NCBI GenBank assembly: GCA_001791745.1
Contig: MGFG01000009.1
Coordinates: 5,175 to 68,730, forward strand
Length of the DNA stretch: 63,556 nt
From: Candidatus Uhrbacteria bacterium RIFOXYC2_FULL_47_19
Lineage (GTDB): Bacteria; Patescibacteriota; Patescibacteriia; SG8-24
Direction: 5' to 3'
The notes beneath the pieces are model-generated. The model was not told the origin of the DNA. It saw only the letters and a program-made list of their open reading frames with translations, and did no database searches. The position numbers and the translations under genes were made by a program. Numbering within the stretch: position 1 is the stretch's first letter; the number at the start of each line of letters is the position of its first letter. Below are positions 20,800 to 40,728 of this stretch, one piece after another.

Positions 20800-21741
20800 C
20801 TACTTCATCTGCTGTTGTTCGATAGAAGGTTGAAGTGTCAGAGTTTGACGTGAGCGGAAGGCTAGTAGCACTGTCAGAGAAGCACCACCAACAAATAATG
20901 CAGCCGCCACAGCTTGAGGCCAGGTGAATTTGTGAGTGATAAAAATTGCTGACAGAACATTAGTTACCAGTGTGGCTAATACTAGTAGAGTGGCCACGTA
21001 GGTAGCAGGTGCTCGCTTTAGTGCTGAGTACCAAGTTATGACATAGCCGAGTAGTAGGGCGCTGGTAAGTAGTGTCCAGCCCCATTCCGCACCAGAGACT
21101 GCAGTCAGATTAGGCAAACCTTCTGTGACTAGTAAATAGACAATCAACGCAGCTGAACCAATGATCATTCTAGCCCCAGATACGGTTATTGCTGAGAGAT
21201 CAGTTAGTAGTTTTTTGGCCAGGACGTTTTCGACAGACCACATTAAAGTCGCTCCCAGGATCATTAGTTCACCAATATTGAATTCGAAGCCTTTGAATCC
21301 ACCAATCAGTAAGTTGGCGCCGAATAAAGCGATTATTCCGAGCCATTGCAAGACGGACACTCGCTCCTTTAAGAGTGGGACAGCCATGATTGCCACCCAG
21401 ATAAAAAGTGTCTTATGTATGAGTGCAGCGCTAGTTGCACTGGTCATGGTTAGACCGGTGAAGAACAGAACGAACGGAATAGCACCTCCAATCAAACCAA
21501 CTGCCAGGAGTGTTAGAATCTGACGTTTCGAAAGCTGTGACAATTCGTGGCGTTTTTTTAATGCCAAAAGTATTCCTACTAATGCTATGGCGACTAAGGC
21601 ATTTTTTAAGGTTGTATAAGCGACCGGAGAAGAGAATGAGTTCAAAGCAAACTTAGCAAGAAAGGTGTTGGTGCCAGAAATCGCTGCCGTTATTAGAGCG
21701 AGAATAGTGGCCCCTCGGATGAGATCTGGAGTTTTAATCAT
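20800..21741 (-). CDS. EamA/DMT-family transporter
   Basis: About 10 hydrophobic segments in two similar halves, typical of the drug/metabolite transporter superfamily. 313 aa. Confidence 0.75.
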   Translation of the reverse strand: MIKTPDLIRGATILALITAAISGTNTFLAKFALNSFSSPVAYTTLKNALVAIALVGILLALKKRHELSQLSKRQILTLLAVGLIGGAIPFVLFFTGLTMTSATSAALIHKTLFIWVAIMAVPLLKERVSVLQWLGIIALFGANLLIGGFKGFEFNIGELMILGATLMWSVENVLAKKLLTDLSAITVSGARMIIGSAALIVYLLVTEGLPNLTAVSGAEWGWTLLTSALLLGYVITWYSALKRAPATYVATLLVLATLVTNVLSAIFITHKFTWPQAVAAALFVGGASLTVLLAFRSRQTLTLQPSIEQQQMK

Positions 21742-22076: not shown

Positions 22077-22292
22077 TTAGTCGTTAGTTAATTTATCGAT
22101 CACTTCGCCGACCACATCCAACCGGAGTAGGTTAAGTCCGCGACCGTCAGCTCTCTTAATGGCGATTAGTTTGTCACCTTGCTCGATACCTAGCTCGCGT
22201 CGGAGGTCGCAGGGGATAGCAATCTGGCCTTTGTCGGTGACGGTCACTAGATTAAAGCCTCTCGTTTTTTTGTTACATATTCCTGAGGTCAT
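22077..22292 (-). CDS. AbrB/MazE/SpoVT-family DNA-binding protein
   Basis: VTVTDKGQIAIPCDLRRELGIEQGDKLIAI is the swapped-hairpin AbrB-type motif. 71 aa. Lies 10 nt upstream of the HiPIP-like ORF. Confidence 0.75.
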   Translation of the reverse strand: MTSGICNKKTRGFNLVTVTDKGQIAIPCDLRRELGIEQGDKLIAIKRADGRGLNLLRLDVVGEVIDKLTND

Positions 22293-22417
22293 AAGGTCTT
22301 TATAAGATTATTCTTGTTTATCTTACTTGATTGACCAGGTTTGTCAAGGGTTTAGATATTTAGTACCTTCTGCTACCCTAATTGGGTATACGAATCTTTT
22401 TTATAAATTTATGGTCT

Positions 22418-24178
22418 ATGCGTTCAGAACAGGAAAATGAGGTCATCTATCAAGGGGACGGTTGGATAATGGTCCGCACTGACGACGATAATCTGTTTGA
22501 TGTTCTTTATGGTGAGGGCTACGAGAGGGTGGTGCTCGTGAACGAGCTGGCCGACGGTACCTTTGAGTACATCATAGGAAAGAAATCGGAGGATGTGGTT
22601 GGTTTTCCGGTTGGACCAGAAACCGAGATCGGAACTTTTCTCTTTGAGTTGAACAAGCTTGAAATGGGGTGGAAGGGGAGCAATTTGTATGGTGGGGCAC
22701 CGATGAATACAGATGGATCCCGTTCCATTCTTACGCCCCATACTGTCGCTAGCCTTATCAATTTTACGATTCGTGAAGGCACTGCCATCCGTTCATCAGA
22801 TTCGGGCATGTCAAAAAAACAGGAGGGAGAGATTGATCCCAGCCTAATTTTTGATGAGGCTATTCTTGATTTTCAAGTAGACGCGGAACGATTGGGCAGA
22901 GTTAATTACGTTAATTTGGACAATGCCGCCACTACTCCACCTTTCTTAGCAGTACAGCGTGGTGTCGATGACTATCTGGTAACCTATGGATCTGTCCATC
23001 GTGGAGCGGGGATCAAGTCTAAGGTCTCAACGGATGTTTACGAGCGAACTCGTGACGTCATTAGGGATTTTGTGGGAGCACCAGAAAATTTTTACGTTCT
23101 ATTTACTGGCAATACCACCGGTGCAATGAATACGGCGGCTTACTTCTTCTCCTTTCTTGAAGGTAAGGTCGCCGTGTCTCAGATCGAGCACAGCTCCTCG
23201 TGGTTGCCGTGGATAAAGACAGAGGGGGAGAAGTCATTAGGGAACAGACGTGTTGAATTTCAACACCTGCCCGAAGTTCAGGAACATATACAAGAGGCCG
23301 GACGAGAGATGGTCTTACGATATTCACTTGACAAGAATGGAGAATTTGACCTCGATGGAATCGAGGAGATGTTGAAGTCCAACAATATAAAAGCTTTCGT
23401 TCTGACCGCGTCGTCGAATCTTACCGGATACCGCCCTGACATCAGAAAGATAGGCGAGATTGTTCATCGTTATGGCGCTTATTACATTGTTGATGCCTGT
23501 CAGTTTTTGCAGCATCACAAGATAGACATGATGGAGATGGGGATCGACTTTTTGGCCGCGTCAGGACACAAGTTTTACGCTCCTTACGGTGGCGGATTTC
23601 TGATAGGTCCGAAGATTTTTTTGGATCAGTTTTTACCCTATCAGATTGGTGGTGGAAATCTGCCATATATAACAAAGGAGGGCGTTTTCTTGCGCTATAA
23701 AAATCAGCTGGCGCATGATCCTGGCACTCCGAATGCTATAGGAGCTGTCGCTATGTCGGTAGCCTTGGAGAAGCTTAAGGAGATAGGAATAGACAGAATT
23801 GAGGCCTACGAAAGTCGTCTGACGAGAATAGCCTTTGATGCACTCAAAAAGAATCCGAAGGTTCGTATTCTGGTCAGTGATCTGCATTTAAGCACCGTGC
23901 TTCCTTTTGTGGTGGATGGGTTTGACTCAAAAATTTTTGCCGAGAGACTGAATAGAGAATTTGGAATCGGCGTCCGGGCCGGAAGCTTTTGTGTTTATGA
24001 TGTTGTGAGGGAATTACTCGGCATAGAGGACGAATCAAAAGTTATTGAGGCCGTTGAACGTGGTGACACCATGCTGATACCGGGAGTGATCAGGGCGTCT
24101 TTTGCTTTATGCAATACCGAGCGTGATGTAGACAGGCTTGTACAGGCCGTCAATTTTATTACCGAAAATAAGAATTGA
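22418..24178 (+). CDS. class-V aminotransferase / cysteine-desulfurase-like protein with an unassigned ~170 aa N-terminal domain
   Basis: NLDNAATTPPF, GSVHRGAGIKS, LFTGNTTGAMN, ASGHKFYAPYGGGFLIG (PLP-Lys region), IRASFALCNT. Start uncertain (TTG 22382 or ATG 22418). Confidence 0.75.
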   Translation: MRSEQENEVIYQGDGWIMVRTDDDNLFDVLYGEGYERVVLVNELADGTFEYIIGKKSEDVVGFPVGPETEIGTFLFELNKLEMGWKGSNLYGGAPMNTDGSRSILTPHTVASLINFTIREGTAIRSSDSGMSKKQEGEIDPSLIFDEAILDFQVDAERLGRVNYVNLDNAATTPPFLAVQRGVDDYLVTYGSVHRGAGIKSKVSTDVYERTRDVIRDFVGAPENFYVLFTGNTTGAMNTAAYFFSFLEGKVAVSQIEHSSSWLPWIKTEGEKSLGNRRVEFQHLPEVQEHIQEAGREMVLRYSLDKNGEFDLDGIEEMLKSNNIKAFVLTASSNLTGYRPDIRKIGEIVHRYGAYYIVDACQFLQHHKIDMMEMGIDFLAASGHKFYAPYGGGFLIGPKIFLDQFLPYQIGGGNLPYITKEGVFLRYKNQLAHDPGTPNAIGAVAMSVALEKLKEIGIDRIEAYESRLTRIAFDALKKNPKVRILVSDLHLSTVLPFVVDGFDSKIFAERLNREFGIGVRAGSFCVYDVVRELLGIEDESKVIEAVERGDTMLIPGVIRASFALCNTERDVDRLVQAVNFITENKN

Positions 24179-24183
24179 ATTTT

Positions 24184-25485
24184 ATGTCACATGAAGGTTT
24201 TGCCGAATCACTTTTCACAGAAACGCCGGATATTCCAGATACGGATGATTTGTTGGAGGAGATCGAGTCAATTGACGGAGATTTTGAAAATAAGGAGGTC
24301 ACAGAAGAGACAAAAGAAAGGTGGCGCGAGATTTTGCGTCAGATCCCAGTTGCAGTGAATAATTTTTATGGTGATCCGGTACTTCAGTGGAAAAACACGA
24401 TAGAAAAATTGAGAGAACTCGAGACGAGCCGACATGCCGGCCCCGTGGGTCTCATAATGAAGGGTAGGCTAACCCCAAAGAAGGTGGCCGAGCTTAAGGA
24501 AAAGAAGGAGGGGGGCCTTAATCTGGTAACACTGATCTCTATTTCTGAGCTGCCTTCCCTGGAGGGTACTGGGTCGGAGCATCGATATGAGAATATCAAG
24601 CTGCTTGAGCAGGCTGGGGTTCCGGCGATTGCCTATATTCGTCCGATGATGCCACCTTTTAATACCTCCGAGGAGATAATCAACGGAATGTTTCGGCAGC
24701 TGAAGGAGGCTGGATGCAAATATGCTGTAACCTCCGGATTCCGTGGTGATGAGGCGTTGGTTAGGAAGATGTCACCCGATGAGCAAGTTCAGTGGGCTAT
24801 GAGGGTTAAGGTGATGCCAGGAGAGGTCTATCAGCGCATAAAGAAACATGCAGAGGAAAACGGAATTCAGCTCTTTACTCGTACTTCATGTGCGGTTTCT
24901 GTGGCTACAGGTGATCAGTCTACGTTTAATCCCTACTACAACAGCCCTAACCTCGTTAAGTGTGCCGAGTTGGGTTGTCCGATCCAGGACACCTGCGGTC
25001 CACAGCCGCAACCAAGGGACGGATCGCTGGAATTGGTTCGTAGGCTGGGTTTCGAGGTGGAGTTTGTTCCCGCTCAAAATGGAAAGAAATGTGGTATAAG
25101 TGGTGAAAGTCGACTAAAGTGTCCTTCCTGTTGCACCACATGTTATTTTTCCAAAAACATTCCGCATTTGCTTGTGAAGGGCAATGTAAGTCTTGGTGAT
25201 CTTTCGTTCATTCGTTTTACAACTGGAATGTTAGCCATGCAGCCAGGTAGGAACGATGACGGAAGTAAGGAAGTCGGTCGTGTTAGGTTTCCTAACAATC
25301 CCGAAATAGATGACGTTCAGACGCTCAATAGTTGGTGGCCAGTCTCGAGAAACATCGCTAAGTGTTTTGGATGCAAATACTGTATCGTCGACGAATACTA
25401 CAACGAGACGGGGGAAAATCAGGAGGTAGGATTTCCGCCGGCGAATTTGGTGGACAAAATGTTTCCCGAAGACAGTAAAGAGTAA
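24184..25485 (+). CDS. radical-SAM-fold paralog lacking the N-terminal CX3CX2C, with C-terminal Cys clusters
   Basis: Aligns by eye to the next gene (NNFYGDPVLQW / NAISDPFWPRF and following segments). Acidic, Cys-free N-terminus. C-terminal CPSCCTTC (25120-25143) and CFGCKYC (25363-25383). Confidence 0.6.
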   Translation: MSHEGFAESLFTETPDIPDTDDLLEEIESIDGDFENKEVTEETKERWREILRQIPVAVNNFYGDPVLQWKNTIEKLRELETSRHAGPVGLIMKGRLTPKKVAELKEKKEGGLNLVTLISISELPSLEGTGSEHRYENIKLLEQAGVPAIAYIRPMMPPFNTSEEIINGMFRQLKEAGCKYAVTSGFRGDEALVRKMSPDEQVQWAMRVKVMPGEVYQRIKKHAEENGIQLFTRTSCAVSVATGDQSTFNPYYNSPNLVKCAELGCPIQDTCGPQPQPRDGSLELVRRLGFEVEFVPAQNGKKCGISGESRLKCPSCCTTCYFSKNIPHLLVKGNVSLGDLSFIRFTTGMLAMQPGRNDDGSKEVGRVRFPNNPEIDDVQTLNSWWPVSRNIAKCFGCKYCIVDEYYNETGENQEVGFPPANLVDKMFPEDSKE

Positions 25486-25494
25486 TCGTTGATT

Positions 25495-26382
25495 ATGAAG
25501 GAAGGCATGGAACAACCAGGAAGTCATGGTCACGGTTGCCCGGTGGGATGTGAGTATTGCGTTATAACAAAGGTGGAGTCGCGGCGTTCATTGTGGAATG
25601 AACGTACCTTGTTGGGCATCAATAAGGCCGTCACGATTCTTAATCCACCACCAGATCTACGGAATGAAGATGCCAAACGTGAGTTTTATGAGTTTCCACC
25701 CGAACTATTGCGCGGGGACTTTGTCGGGTTCAATGCGATTTCTGATCCGTTTTGGCCGAGGTTTAAGAATGAATTGGAATGGTTTCTGGAAAAGGTCGCG
25801 CCTGAGGCCAAGGCGGTTACTTGCGTCACTAAGTGGAGTCCGTCGGTACGACTATTGGACAGATTGGCCGAGATCCCCAACTTTCGTCTGATAGTGTCGA
25901 TTACTGGACTTGATGGTCTTGAGCGTACCAAGACCGTTCAGAGATTGGCACTTTTGGATGCCGCAAAACAGCGGGGCATTAAAGCCTTTCCCATAATTCA
26001 TCCGTACATAGCCGGAATGTCGGATTTGTCGTTTCTGCCGCATCTTAAGGAATTGGGTTACGATGAGGTTGATGTTAAGGGTTTGCGGTACAGCCATGAC
26101 ACCATGTCATCGTGGATGCCATCCGAGGGGCGTGTTCTTTATGAGGGTACGAATGAAAGTGAAGTACTTCCAGAAGACGGTTGGAGGGAGAAAGTTGAAA
26201 ATGCAGGAATAAAATTATCTGGTCTGAAGTCTTGGTATCGGCGTGACTTTGAGTCGCTGACTCCACACCTTTCTCGTGAGGAAGCAGAGGGGTTAGTCAG
26301 TCAGATTTTGGAGAGGGCTAACGTCACATCTTCTGATACCGATCAGGCGGTTCTCGATGAAGCTATAAAAAGGAGAATGTAG
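25495..26382 (+). CDS. radical SAM protein (SPL/COG1533-like)
   Basis: GHGCPVGCEYCVI is a canonical CX3CX2C at 25537-25560 near the N-terminus. 295 aa. Confidence 0.75.
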   Translation: MKEGMEQPGSHGHGCPVGCEYCVITKVESRRSLWNERTLLGINKAVTILNPPPDLRNEDAKREFYEFPPELLRGDFVGFNAISDPFWPRFKNELEWFLEKVAPEAKAVTCVTKWSPSVRLLDRLAEIPNFRLIVSITGLDGLERTKTVQRLALLDAAKQRGIKAFPIIHPYIAGMSDLSFLPHLKELGYDEVDVKGLRYSHDTMSSWMPSEGRVLYEGTNESEVLPEDGWREKVENAGIKLSGLKSWYRRDFESLTPHLSREEAEGLVSQILERANVTSSDTDQAVLDEAIKRRM

Positions 26383-26442: not shown

Positions 26443-26477
26443 AAAAAGCACCGGCCAAGAATAGGCAGGTGCTTTTG
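26443..26477. terminator. rho-independent terminator closing the desulfurase/radical-SAM operon
   Basis: AAAAAGCACC(N15)GGTGCTTTT. Confidence 0.65.
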
Positions 26478-26574
26478 AGAAGTTCGGAAGGTCCAGGTTG
26501 GACCCTCCCGATTCAGCCGCCGGATATTGCGTCCGGCGGACTTTTGGGGCTTTTGTCCGGGTGGCTAGGCCGGA

Positions 26575-27510
26575 CTAGACGACGAAGCGCTGGAAGATCG
26601 CCAGCACCTCCTCGGGGGTGAGGCACGAGGATGAGTTGTCCTCGTTCCTCGGGCTCCCGCCGATGGAGGTTCCTCCACCCCAGGTCCTGGAGAGGTCCTG
26701 GTTGGGGTTCTTCGCCTGCTCGGCACGACCGAGCTCGCCGAGGATGGTGTCCTCGAACTGTTCGACGGCCGTGACCGGCCGAGCCTTCGAACCCGGTCCC
26801 ATGGGGGCGGCGACGAGGTCCGACGCCTTGGCGACGGTGTACATCAGACCGCCGCCGCGGGCCTCCTGATACAGGAAGCCCAGGACCAGCCCCGCTCGGT
26901 AAAAGCCATCGAACGCGGTCGATGACTCCACTGGTTGCCACCCGGTGCGGGCCGACCACCCGTAGCCCCTCGAGATCTCCTCACGCACAGGGCGCTCGGA
27001 GATCTCGAGCTCGCCCGCGAGGAAGGCCGAGACCTTCCCGACGAACTCCTCGAGCATCTCGAGGGATTGGGCCGGAGCGTCCTTGCCCCACGGCGGGGTG
27101 ATCTCGCGGTGCAGCGGGTGCGCCGCGAATATCGGCCCGTGGGCGTCGGTCCGCCCGATCTGGGTGACGAGGTCTTCGACCTCCGGCTCCCAGGCCCGAA
27201 GCGGGTTGGCCAGGAGCCACACCGACAGAACCGTGTCCGCGTCGATGTCGTTGACGCAGACGACGGTCTCCTTGTCGACCGGCAGGCCGAGGCAGATCGC
27301 CTCGCGGACCTGCTCGCAGGTTGCCCTCGTGACCAGCCGGAGGCATCCGGCATGGTGGTCGAAGGAGAATCGGCGGCCGACCGCGTCGACGGCCGGGCCC
27401 TGAACGTAGCCGTCCAAGGCGATTGAGTTCGGCGGGAGCTTCTCGAAGGGCACGGTCGCGCCCTTCGAGAAGCTGATGTTGAGGGTGGTGATGGCGATGT
27501 TGATCGTCAT
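26575..27510 (-). CDS. hypothetical protein encoded in a high-GC island (311 aa)
   Basis: ATG at 27510 preceded by GGAGGATTGAGAC. G/C-rich third codon positions. All other frames are also open, as expected in high-GC DNA. No motif recognised. Confidence 0.6.
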   Translation of the reverse strand: MTINIAITTLNISFSKGATVPFEKLPPNSIALDGYVQGPAVDAVGRRFSFDHHAGCLRLVTRATCEQVREAICLGLPVDKETVVCVNDIDADTVLSVWLLANPLRAWEPEVEDLVTQIGRTDAHGPIFAAHPLHREITPPWGKDAPAQSLEMLEEFVGKVSAFLAGELEISERPVREEISRGYGWSARTGWQPVESSTAFDGFYRAGLVLGFLYQEARGGGLMYTVAKASDLVAAPMGPGSKARPVTAVEQFEDTILGELGRAEQAKNPNQDLSRTWGGGTSIGGSPRNEDNSSSCLTPEEVLAIFQRFVV

Positions 27511-27888
27511 GTCTCAATCCTCCGGGGCCGTGCTCTCGCGTCGGCCCCTAGCTGTGGTCTCCTCAAACTATCCGCTGTTTTGCCGTTCCCTCGCAGGAGC
27601 GGCCTCCTCCCTAATGAGAGGAGCGTGGGTCGACACAGGGATATGTCAACGTTCTCCCACTGGGCCCTTCTGTCCGCTTCCTCGAGAGGAATGCCGGACA
27701 AGGTGGGCTTTCACCTGGCCATTTGCCCCTTCAGTGGGGCCCACAGGAAGGCCAGCACCCTTTCGTTTTCGGGGTATTTCCCCTTTATATCTAATTCGCT
27801 CCCGTTTTTTTGGTCGAGAGCGGTTACTTTTTCAAAGTCCCGATTCACCTTAGGTTTTCGCCTCCGGTGGTCGGCTGCTTCAGCCTGA
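27511..27888 (-). promoter_or_regulatory. long GC-rich structured 5' leader of the island gene (possible riboswitch, class unresolved)
   Basis: About 375 nt between the predicted promoter and the ATG. Multiple strong hairpins, including GGGGCCG(N11)CGGCCCC abutting the SD, and a three-way-junction-like fold at ~27660-27755. Confidence 0.35.
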
Positions 27889-27894
27889 CGTAGG

Positions 27895-27923
27895 ACTATA
27901 GCACAGGATTAAAGTTTTGTCAA
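27895..27923 (-). promoter_or_regulatory. near-consensus sigma70 promoter facing the high-GC island
   Basis: Minus strand reads TTGACA, a 17-nt spacer, then TATAGT. Confidence 0.55.
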
Positions 27924-28145: not shown

Positions 28146-28220
28146 TGGTGCACCCGCAAGGAATCGAACCTTGATCTTGGGCTTCGGAGGCCCACGTTCT
28201 ATCCGTTGAACTACGAGTGC
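28146..28220 (-). tRNA. tRNA-Arg (anticodon CCG), CCA encoded
   Basis: Minus strand folds by hand: acceptor GCACTCG/CGGGTGC, D arm GTTC/GAAC, anticodon arm TGGGC-CTCCGAA-GCCCA, T arm CAAGG-TTCGATT-CCTTG. 75 nt. Confidence 0.92.
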
Positions 28221-28299: not shown

Positions 28300-28815
28300 G
28301 ATTTCATTTTTCTACTCTTTACTTCTGGGTCCCGGATACTGTTCGACTCGCTACGCTCGCTCACAGTTCCGGGACGACAATGTTTTAACTTGTCATCCCG
28401 GAAGGCCGAGCAAGGCGAGGTCTATCCGGGATCCAGAAGCCAATCCCAATCTTTTGCTTCTGGGTCCCGGATACTGTTCGACTCGCTACGCTCGCTCACA
28501 GTTCCGGGACGACAGTGTTTTAACTTGTCATCCCGGAAGGCCGAGCAAGGCGAGGTCTATCCGGGATCCAGAAGCTAATCCCAATCTTTTTTGCCTCTGG
28601 GTCCCGGATACTGTTCGACTCGCTACGCTCGCTCATAGTTCCGGGACGACAGTGCTTTAATATGTCATCCCGGAAGGCCGAGCAAGGCGAGGTCTATCCG
28701 GGATCCAGAAGCTAATCCCAATCTTTCTGCTCCTGGGTCCCGGATACTGCTCGCTACACTCGCGGTTCCGGGACGACAAAAGGAAAGATGTCCAGCTCAA
28801 AGTCCGGGACGACAA
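28300..28815 (+). repeat. tandem array (~3.5 copies, period 135-137 bp) of a nested-palindrome repeat unit (modules A+B)
   Basis: CTGGGTCCCGG recurs at 28325, 28460, 28597 and 28733. Each unit is CTGGGTCCCGGATACTGTTCGACTCGCTACGCTCGCTCACAGTTCCGGGACGAC + TGTCATCCCGGAAGGCCGAGCAAGGCGAGGTCTATCCGGGATCCAGAAG. Confidence 0.9.
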
Positions 28816-40255: not shown

Positions 40256-40719
40256 ATGGCCGACCGGACGGTCGCCTTTGCCGCAAAAACAGGGTAAGGG
40301 AGGAAAGTCCGGACACCCCTCGAGCGGCAACGCCGAGGAAGCAGGTAGTCGCTAACGACGACCGGGAATAAGGTTTGACGGGCATTTCTCCTAGGAAACT
40401 GGAGAAGTCTCTGTCGGCCCCAAGCCTAGGGAAAGTGAAACAGAAAATACACCGCCCGAATCCTAGCGCAAGCAAGGATGAGGTCTTGAGTGGAGTCGAA
40501 AGACTTTCTCAAGCTGGGTAAGGTTGAAAACGTGGGGTAAGAGCCCACGCGGGACAGCCGTGTGAGCGGCGCCGTGGAAAACCCTGCCTGGTGCAAGAGC
40601 AAGTTTGGTAGCTCGCTAGAGGTCGTCGGCAACGACGATCCCAGATAGATGGCCGTCCGTCGTCAGATGTGCGTTTCGTGCGTCGGGCGACGACAGAATC
40701 CGGCTTACAGGTCGACCAT
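40256..40719 (+). ncRNA. rnpB: RNase P RNA (bacterial type A)
   Basis: GGGAGGAAAGTCCGGACACC (P4 5' strand), GGTAAGAGCCCACGC, ACAGAATCCGGCTTACAGGTCGACC (P4/P1 3' strands), and 5' GGCCGACC pairing with the 3' end. About 464 nt, so some helices are expanded relative to E. coli. Confidence 0.9.
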
Positions 40720-40728
40720 GAATCGTCG

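Follow-up and report, generated by a model that had tools for sequence, protein, structure and literature searches.

We report that a three-gene cassette (g1, g2 and g3) on a stretch of 63,556 nucleotides from Candidatus Uhrbacteria bacterium RIFOXYC2_FULL_47_19 (contig MGFG01000009.1, positions 5,175 to 68,730; the whole stretch is hereafter called the window) is a real, conserved, mobile and uncharacterised system in which members of known superfamilies occur in a new arrangement. The trio encodes a predicted SufS-type cysteine desulfurase (g1), a cysteine-rich protein that is a circular permutant of the radical S-adenosylmethionine (SAM) fold (g2), and a canonical radical SAM enzyme (g3). 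An earlier note on this DNA had suggested thio-modification or sulfur insertion as the task of these genes. Our results support this suggestion, with neither the survey of conservation nor the profile searches giving a result against it, and we hypothesize, at a probability of roughly 45%, that the trio would form a self-contained, horizontally mobile radical SAM module for sulfur insertion.

The treatment of the three genes as one system in the earlier note is borne out by their co-conservation across genomes. We assembled 100 loci, representing 47 distinct groups, from the contigs of diverse g2 and g3 homologs and from scans of GTDB species genomes, IMG/VR and Joint Genome Institute (JGI) metagenomes. 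The complete trio was present in 33 of the 47 groups, nearly always ordered g1-g2-g3, while most of the remaining groups lie on short contigs or contig ends and two reflect limits of open reading frame (ORF) calling. In every locus with enough flanking sequence the trio genes were adjacent, mostly in the same order, over a span of g2 identities from 31 to 80%. Besides, natural fusions join the components: P0198 (784 aa) and P0203 (845 aa) are Aminotran_5-g2 fusions, and P0206 (820 aa) combines a non-permuted g2-like protein with a g3-like protein. We conclude that the three genes are strictly co-inherited and have no further obligate partner.

Most hosts belong to the Patescibacteria (Uhr-, Nomura-, Sacchari-, Morani- and Paceibacteria), but the system is not specific to the candidate phyla radiation (CPR). 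The trio was also found in metagenome-assembled genomes (MAGs) of Clostridia, on contigs of 90-155 kb and at 33-35% identity, one of these loci lying between mecA and radC-mreBC among ordinary chromosomal neighbours, in MAGs with an Alpha- or Gammaproteobacteria label (an autotransporter gene being close by in one group), and on four IMG/VR viral contigs of 75-178 kb. Trio contigs L017 (JAHJBR010000022.1), L021, L025, L027-L029, L038 and L039 bear the labels Micrarchaeota archaeon, Gammaproteobacteria, Alphaproteobacteria and Succinivibrionaceae; some of these contigs are short and may be mis-binned Patescibacteria or contigs of mobile elements, which is a caveat on the host range. The trio often lies in a mobile context, its neighbours including an integrase, AbiEii, type I restriction-modification genes, a Toprim primase, a P4 cII-like gene, Mu Gam, ParA, IS605 OrfB and GmrSD. 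In Uhrbacteria GW2011_GWA2_52_8d (locus L047, 6659-11069) the GC content is 41% in the trio and 49% in the locus, and an rve integrase fragment of 171 aa precedes the trio. The flanks of this locus (TsaD/TsaE, T2SSE, FtsH) are unlike those in the window, which indicates that the cassette moved even between close relatives.

In Pfam, g1 matched Aminotran_5 (PF00266) with an E-value of 2.7e-70 (237.6 bits, cutoff 21.5); its best NCBIfam match was SufS (TIGR01979; E 2.5e-66, 224 bits, under the cutoff of 475), followed by the CsdA model (157 bits, under the cutoff of 607), and its best solved relatives in a Protein Data Bank (PDB) sequence search were SufS/CsdA structures (E 1e-42 to 1e-37). The pyridoxal phosphate (PLP) lysine and the catalytic cysteine of R-x-G-x-F-C-x-Y are invariant in 31 g1 homologs, including the Clostridia and viral copies. 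Numbered from an alternative in-frame TTG start at 22382, upstream of the ATG at 22418, the invariant residues are H396-K397 and R532/G534/F536/C537/Y539, K397 and C537 being K385 and C525 when counted from the ATG. The protein thus combines the Aminotran_5 fold, the PLP lysine and the C-terminal-loop cysteine of group II desulfurases, with Ser-Phe replacing the His-His that stands ahead of the catalytic cysteine in the SufS/CsdA type. Since the lysine and the loop cysteine are invariant across lineages, g1 seems equipped as a persulfide-forming desulfurase, and we predict it to be an active SufS-type enzyme with intact catalytic residues, in agreement with the NifS/SufS-type PLP fold proposed in the earlier note. 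The motifs quoted there, NLDNAATTPPF, SVHRGAG and SGHKFYAPYGGGFLIG in g1 and GCPVGCEYC in g3, were all found in the ORF translations. Neighbour clustering over the 47 groups brought up no recurrent SufE, SufU or CsdE partner family, in a comparison that included no scan aimed at these proteins.

The third gene carries the canonical radical SAM CX3CX2C motif that had been read from it, with C17, C21, Y23 and C24 invariant in 37 sequences and with the aromatic residue before the third cysteine that is expected in the superfamily. These are the sole invariant cysteines of g3, which suggests one cluster of the canonical type. The protein of the window matched Radical_SAM (PF04055) with an E-value of 1.2e-3 (19.5 bits, under the gathering threshold of 29.5), and many of its homologs have a precomputed PF04055 match and the JGI name 'DNA repair photolyase'. 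g3 itself gave no match to the COG1533-type NCBIfam models (spore photoproduct lyase, SPL, with PA0069 and Rv2578c), which 4 of 37 g3 homologs reached with E-values of 1e-4 at best.

The claim that gene 2 is a paralog of gene 3 holds in three comparisons: BLASTP aligned the two proteins at 24% identity over 169 columns (E 2e-4), hhalign of the two families gave a probability of 93.9% and an E-value of 1.6e-7 over 105 columns, and the family hidden Markov models (HMMs) cross-match each other. The invariant GDP of g2 sits at the position of the SDP motif of g3, and the remote relatives of both proteins fall in the SPL-like branch with COG1533, PA0069 and Rv2578c. g2 is a distant paralog of g3. 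These proteins are rare: at 90% identity, and among 5.8 billion clusters, the g2 family comprises 72 clusters and the g3 family 213.

g2 is not, however, a simple paralog that lacks the motif, as it carries a C-terminal CX2CX2C. In radical SAM proteins the three-cysteine motif is normally placed in an N-terminal loop after strand 1. In g2 the N-terminal region is free of any cysteine motif; the CX2CX2C occupies residues 397-403 of the 436, and the chain begins near an invariant NN-F-Y-G-D-P, the counterpart of SDPFWP in g3. A profile search of 1.84 billion representative proteins with g2 returned 476 relatives at E <=0.001, 42 of them below E 1e-30, and the CPSCCTTC motif inside its Cys-rich insert was also used for recovering relatives. 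We compared 14 relatives, 13 of 330-446 aa and the 820-aa P0206. The CX2CX2C is N-terminal in 12 of them (e.g., CFGCAYC, CYRCPYC), about 35-50 residues ahead of NN-x-[FY]-GDP; P0240 has a canonical CPLGCAYC in its place, and P0238 is permuted as in g2. On the non-permuted relatives the match of the g2 HMM splits, positions ~338-382, which hold the C-terminal cysteines of g2, aligning to their N-termini with domain E-values down to 7.5e-10 and positions 8-320 aligning downstream. Because of this split, the cluster loop of g2 must have moved from the front of the chain to its back, and we conclude from the alignments that g2 is a circular permutant of a radical SAM paralog. The displaced cluster site would still be functional, as the aromatic residue and the GDP motif are retained. 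A C-terminal cluster motif is also known from ThiC, a radical-SAM-related TIM barrel of an unrelated family with the spacing CX2CX4C; in g2 the placement arose by permutation within a family whose other members have N-terminal motifs.

The non-permuted g2 relatives with an N-terminal CX2CX2C form a separate, larger clade, and it is in itself unusual for a CX2CX2C to take the place of the radical SAM cluster motif. P0206 (locus L044, 6001-8463) stands alone in a CPR-like chromosome, with no desulfurase, and the non-permuted relative P0214 (L046, 2933-4156) lies 3 nt upstream of a NUDIX gene.

Twelve cysteines of g2 are invariant in an alignment of 29 sequences (C239, C263, C268, C274, C306, C316, C319, C320, C323, C397, C400 and C403), as is Y402, the residue before the last cysteine of the CX2CX2C. 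The nine cysteines of the insert would ligate two auxiliary iron-sulfur (Fe-S) clusters and leave a Cys-Cys dyad, and in the protein of the window they include a CX4CX5C spacing as in the auxiliary motif of LipA. g2 matched no Pfam family, and scored 16.4 and 14.9 bits with the NCBIfam PA0069/Rv2578c-type radical SAM models, whose cutoffs are 360 and 430. The AlphaFold2 (AF2) model of g2 (pLDDT 84.4, pTM 0.86) found its best PDB folds in NifB, LipA and HydE (E 2e-5 to 4e-4, target-normalised template modelling (TM) scores 0.36-0.58), which are radical SAM enzymes with auxiliary clusters that handle sulfur or clusters. SkfB and SuiB were further fold matches, and all five had a probability of 1.00 but low TM scores.

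The gene set lies outside known pathways, as had been proposed, with Pfam, NCBIfam, PADLOC and PDB searches placing g2 and g3 in none of them. Sequence and profile searches of the PDB returned nothing meaningful for g2 or g3; the LipA, BioB, MiaB and RimO models of NCBIfam did not match either protein at E <=0.1, the BioB model matching 2 of 37 g3 homologs at E 0.012; and in PADLOC only g1 was matched, with nothing for g2, g3 or the two flanking genes. Likewise, a literature search found no description of this gene set. The model for protein B of a radical SAM mobile pair (TIGR04470) recognised only remote relatives and 3 of 37 g3 members (E 1e-5 to 8e-3, cutoff 410 bits). As no profile match qualifies, we do not count the trio as a member of LipA, LipS1/LipS2, BioB or MiaB/RimO.

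By analogy, the mode of action of the trio would nevertheless be most like that of these sulfur-inserting enzymes. LipA and LipS1/LipS2 insert sulfur by radical SAM chemistry with an auxiliary Fe-S cluster as the sulfur source, and LipA is among the best fold matches of g2. In LipS1/LipS2, two radical SAM proteins act jointly and each inserts one sulfur (PMC10332631). On the other hand, the lipoyl enzymes belong to a BioB-like branch and the trio to an SPL-like one, they have no dedicated desulfurase in their operon, and genes for a lipoate ligase or a lipoyl domain do not recur around the trio; the LipS1 model (NF053742) matched 1 of 37 g3 members at E 0.057, and the LipA model none. The nearest sequence relatives of g2 and g3 are the SPL/COG1533/PA0069/Rv2578c proteins, with which they have in common an [ST]DP-type motif that follows the cluster loop, at scores of 15-35 bits against family cutoffs of 360-430. 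SPL, however, acts alone with one cluster and has no link to a desulfurase, unlike the Cys-rich and permuted g2. The DndA-DndC and SspA-SspD systems of DNA phosphorothioation resemble the trio in having a dedicated NifS/SufS-like desulfurase that feeds an Fe-S protein, which in their case modifies DNA, and in their mobile, sporadic distribution, and g1 matched SspA (E 6e-27) and DndA (E 6e-26) in PADLOC. The sulfur acceptor in Dnd/Ssp is a PP-loop ATP pyrophosphatase (PMC10853773), whereas the putative acceptor of the trio has the radical SAM fold, and PADLOC detected no homolog of DndC/D/E or SspB/C/D in g2 or g3. In Pseudomonas phage M6, thymidine hypermodification on DNA involves the PLP enzyme gp52 beside the SPL-like radical SAM isomerase gp53 (PMC8989533), so that the trio shares with a phage-carried pair the adjacency of a PLP enzyme gene and an SPL-like radical SAM gene.

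Considering these features together, we propose a theoretical scheme for the reaction. g1 would convert L-cysteine to alanine and carry the sulfur as a persulfide on its invariant cysteine, from which it would be handed directly to g2, either to its auxiliary clusters or to its Cys-Cys dyad. g3 and g2 would act together, most likely as a heterodimer, in which g3, and probably also g2, would cleave SAM to a 5'-deoxyadenosyl radical that abstracts a hydrogen atom from the substrate. The substrate radical would then be quenched by the sulfur held on g2, forming a C-S bond, and g1 would refill g2 with sulfur afterwards. The presence of two radical-SAM-type sites would suggest two hydrogen abstractions, thus either two sulfur insertions or one insertion and a second step. 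Clostridia-type organisms normally possess housekeeping desulfurases. The retention of g1 on Clostridia-labelled contigs of ordinary chromosomal context and the g1-g2 fusions therefore favour a role of sulfur as a stoichiometric reactant over one as a mere component of clusters.

The substrate is probably ubiquitous, most plausibly DNA, RNA or a nucleotide. We infer a ubiquitous substrate from the absence of any other conserved partner, the branch to which the DNA enzyme SPL also belongs, and the carriage on phages and islands; a nucleic acid or nucleotide is a first guess, of modest probability, that follows from the SPL/COG1533-like branch, the M6 precedent and the same carriage. It is decidedly unlikely, in our judgement, that the cassette writes a new sulfur modification onto DNA or an incorporated nucleotide by radical C-H thiolation, with SPL-like radical SAM enzymes that receive sulfur from their own desulfurase, for self-marking of phages and islands or for evasion of restriction.

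Several observations weigh against the module being one for sulfur insertion. NifS is a counter-example of a dedicated desulfurase that serves only cluster building, in nitrogenase. The fold matches of g2 are weak (query-normalised TM ~0.3), generic TIM barrels score similarly, and the LipA-like CX4CX5C spacing is not kept in all members. The link to nucleic acids comes from the distant family resemblance, at the bit scores given above, and from context; in the 47 groups the trio lacks a conserved nuclease, methylase-type reader or DNA-binding partner. Besides, g2 had no match in cultured phage and plasmid collections, and in tblastn searches of g2 and g3 against 50,697 phage records g3 had no phage match below E 0.3.

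Of the other explanations, the one to be taken most seriously, although we consider it rather unlikely, is that g1 is a private NifS-like Fe-S assembly factor and that g2 and g3 perform their chemistry without sulfur transfer, which could be DNA or RNA repair, an isomerisation or the formation of a C-C bond, as in SPL or M6 gp53. The demand for clusters would be high, about three in g2 and one in g3, many hosts are Patescibacteria with reduced genomes, phages may need a guaranteed supply of clusters, and the characterised enzymes of the SPL branch perform no sulfur chemistry (PMC8989533). Cluster supply alone, however, would not readily account for the retention of g1 in Clostridia MAG loci of ordinary chromosomal context or for its fusion straight to g2 rather than to a scaffold protein, and scaffold genes of the U or A type do not recur around the trio. 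The same lack of scaffold genes bears on the building or remodelling of a sulfur-containing metallocluster or cofactor, inorganic or organometallic, to serve an enzyme whose gene lies elsewhere, much as NifS and NifB or HydE/HydG do, which we find highly unlikely: these systems also pair a dedicated desulfurase with radical SAM enzymes that have auxiliary clusters, many cysteines are typical of such maturases, and NifB and HydE are among the top fold matches of g2, but these matches are weak and unaccompanied by kinship at the sequence level, no client metalloenzyme gene is conserved nearby in the 47 groups, and a host-specific client would fit poorly with a cassette that phages and islands carry in unrelated hosts.

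An architecture in which a PLP enzyme adjoins an SPL-like radical SAM enzyme that works on DNA is established (PMC8989533), and the trio occurs on viral contigs, so that g1 might instead be a non-desulfurase PLP enzyme acting on an amino-acid-nucleobase conjugate in phage-type hypermodification, as gp52 and gp53 of M6 do. We give this idea slightly less credit still, since the cysteine loop of desulfurases is invariant in g1, whose best scores are with SufS/CsdA, and most copies of the trio are chromosomal; gp52, moreover, is a decarboxylase rather than a desulfurase and works with a single radical SAM enzyme. The kinase and transferase genes for 5-hydroxymethyldeoxyuridine (5-hmdU) are not part of the cassette, and no candidate for the 5-hmdU kinase or the glycinyl transferase recurred in the neighbour clustering, which included no search aimed at them. 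No M6-type record was present among the phage matches listed for g1, g2 and g3: neither g2 nor g3 had a tblastn match below E 0.3, and the listed matches of g1 (31 of 37 records) are SufS/CsdA-type or unannotated.

A Cys-rich region for auxiliary clusters after the radical SAM core is typical of SPASM/twitch maturases. Such a region in the trio would agree with the modification of a ribosomally made peptide with post-translational modifications (RiPP) or of a protein, a housekeeping protein included, with thioether or thio groups as made by sactisynthases or RimO. This possibility is about as improbable as the hypermodification just discussed, as the 800 bp next to the trio hold no conserved small ORF (at best, a cluster covers 2 of 47 groups) and no SPASM, protease or transporter family recurs. 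Least probable of all is the synthesis of an antiviral or toxic nucleotide, a sulfur-bearing analogue comparable in concept to the products of prokaryotic viperins. It could draw on the defence-island context, on scattered neighbours of nucleotide metabolism (adenylate-kinase-like in L013, NT5C and NUDIX in L006, NUDIX at P0214) and on the remote relative P0278, with a weak MazG-like N-terminal match (E 2.6e-4), but these neighbours recur in no more than a few groups, phages themselves carry the cassette, and g2 and g3 are unmatched in PADLOC.

The fused extension at the N-terminus of g1 in the window, which the earlier note had estimated at ~170 aa and could not place, is real and placeable, as it corresponds to the C-terminal half of w_311, a protein of an unannotated family encoded just downstream (Table 1). 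The w_311-family HMM matched the g1 ORF with an E-value of 9e-23, jackhmmer aligned w_311 residues 178-307 to residues 15-127 of the g1 ORF, and BLASTP gave 30% identity over 134 aa (E 1e-8). We conclude from these alignments that the extension is a homolog of the C-terminal half of w_311, the latter being the source domain. A check for recurrence, as the earlier note had recommended, found this domain in the w_311 family and the same extension in the closest g1 relatives, namely those of Uhrbacteria L047/L048, of L049 and of Saccharibacteria L032; most other g1 homologs lack it and have 21-58 residues ahead of the LDNAATT motif. An apparent further N-terminal extension in the 593-aa g1 of L022 was an artefact of ORF calling. 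A role of g1 as a family 2A encapsulin cargo desulfurase was rejected: NF041166 gave a score under its cutoff (194.7 bits vs 800) that covers the desulfurase domain only, and the flanking AbrB-like and w_311 genes do not encode encapsulins. The extension was likewise rejected as a cargo-loading region, being homologous to a folded domain of w_311.

The w_311 family comprises at least 306 clusters, none with a Pfam domain, and its few named members are Patescibacteria and one Dehalococcoidia. Its invariant residues are D33, D51-H52-H53, N87, D90, D92, D122, W277-G278-G279 and R288. The AF2 model of w_311 has a pLDDT of 93 and no PDB fold neighbour in Foldseek (best E 0.22), so that a DHH-type phosphoesterase, as suggested by DHH, NDxDxD and WGGG, is unsupported. 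The gene is a sharp GC island, with 67% GC (65-69% in 300-bp windows, region 26480-27900) against 47% for the window, and w_311 may represent a novel fold and may have been acquired horizontally in recent times. In the L006/L018 and L013 groups, distant relatives are encoded immediately upstream of the trio. L015 and L016 have family members but no trio, and most trio loci lack the family; the 328-aa gene that converges on the trio in L047 does not encode a w_311 homolog. We considered w_311 as a fourth component, owing to its homology with the g1 extension and its adjacency in three lineages, and rejected this since the family is also found without the trio. As it is, besides, missing from most trio loci, w_311 is a loose associate, possibly an accessory substrate-binding or adaptor domain.

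Table 1. Features of the trio and its immediate surroundings, in positions of the window.
Feature	Position	Strand	Details
EamA transporter gene	20800-21741	-	
AbrB/MazE-type small DNA-binding protein gene	22077..22292	-	Divergent from trio; TIGR01439 AbrB E 1.1e-9, PF04014 E 1.7e-6
g1, predicted SufS-type (group II) cysteine desulfurase with N-terminal extension	22418..24178	+	586 aa counted from ATG
N-terminal extension of g1, copy of w_311-family C-terminal domain	22424..22762	+	HMM, jackhmmer, BLASTP
PLP-dependent desulfurase domain of g1 (predicted)	22892..24160	+	TIGR01979 aligned to residues 159-581
g2, circularly permuted radical-SAM-fold protein	24175..25485	+	436 aa, 12 invariant cysteines
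Cys-rich insert of g2	24889..25143	+	C239 to C323, nine invariant cysteines; 29-sequence alignment
C-terminal CX2CX2C (CFGCKYC) of g2, displaced radical-SAM cluster motif	25363..25383	+	
g3, canonical radical SAM enzyme, SPL/COG1533-like branch	25489..26382	+	297 aa
CX3CX2C motif of g3 (CPVGCEYC)	25537..25560	+	
Hairpin between convergent g3 and w_311 genes	26444..26476	.	Arms 26444-26456 / 26464-26476
w_311, protein of unannotated family	26575..27510	-	311 aa; convergent with g3, just downstream

The layout agrees with the three same-strand genes and junctions of <=10 nt described earlier: g1 and g2 overlap by 4 nt, and g2 and g3 are separated by 3 nt if g3 starts at TTG, or by 9 nt if it starts at the ATG at 25495. 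A shared terminator had been placed at 26443-26477. An inverted repeat does exist there, with 13-nt arms that are 92% complementary, AAAA on its 5' side and TTTT on its 3' side; it was not called in a terminator scan, the T run after it being four T only, and it is a possible bidirectional terminator for the g3 and w_311 genes. Of the two divergent neighbours named in the earlier note, the AbrB-family gene is confirmed by profile matches, and a HiPIP-like gene was not found: the minus-strand ORFs between the AbrB and EamA genes encode only 30 and 38 aa, the latter with no cysteine. The AbrB/MazE-like gene does not recur in other trio loci and is a local neighbour outside the conserved cassette.

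All-against-all clustering of the ORFs in the 100 loci found a TrmB-like regulator (10 of the 47 groups) and a CCA-adding enzyme (4 of 47), the regulator being the only neighbour family in more than 4 groups. It has ~259 aa and lies 1-7 kb from the trio on the strand opposite g2 (L006 2064-2831, L022, L023, L024, L031, L032, L067, L070, L085), and it also occurs near the w_311 homolog in the trio-less L015 (3876-4685); its recurrence could reflect synteny among related Patescibacteria or a regulatory link. On the viral contigs, Pfam scans of the neighbours were nearly empty and PHROGs gave only primase, ATPase and unknown-function families. Two unrelated loci (L011 2277-2804, L049 12051-12638) encode a DUF3228 protein a few kb away from the trio. 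In the L013 group g3 is adjoined by an adenylate-kinase-like gene, and downstream of the L006 trio come genes for NT5C, NUDIX and inositol phosphatase. Such neighbours hint here and there at nucleotide metabolism, but none is recurrent.

The window as a whole is a fragment of a bacterial chromosome. It contains genes for 23S and 5S rRNA, for RNase P RNA and for three tRNAs, and the closest named relatives of its proteins are from Uhrbacteria and other Patescibacteria. The RNase P RNA match (40256-40723, 184 bits) spans 468 nt against a model of 367 positions, which implies sizeable insertions relative to the class A consensus. A tandem repeat at 28318-28753 (135-bp unit, 3.2 copies, 95% matches) adjoins the tRNA-Arg(CCG) gene at 28146-28220 on the minus strand; the ORFs across it look like repeat artefacts, and it could be an RNA element, the end of a mobile element or a protein repeat. 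A direct repeat of the tRNA-Arg gene flanking the region, looked for as a mark of integration, was not found.

Sulfur insertion by radical SAM enzymes is known from few families (LipA, BioB, MiaB/RimO and LipS1/S2), and how the sacrificial sulfur is replenished in these reactions is still debated. In the cassette described here, a desulfurase is tied genetically, and physically through fusions, to an acceptor that is predicted to be rich in clusters, which makes sulfur resupply testable in a system of three proteins. The permutation of g2 suggests that the cluster loop of a radical SAM enzyme can come from the opposite end of the chain, which bears on the evolution of these enzymes, and motif-based annotation misses proteins such as the permuted g2. 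That the trio is spread over Patescibacteria, Clostridia, MAGs labelled Proteobacteria and large phages suggests a trait that can be passed between hosts, and this might be a new modification of nucleic acids. Should the reading as DNA thiolation be true, g2 would be the first documented radical SAM domain that is circularly permuted and catalytically active, and the cassette would represent a second route to sulfur in DNA, independent of phosphorothioation.

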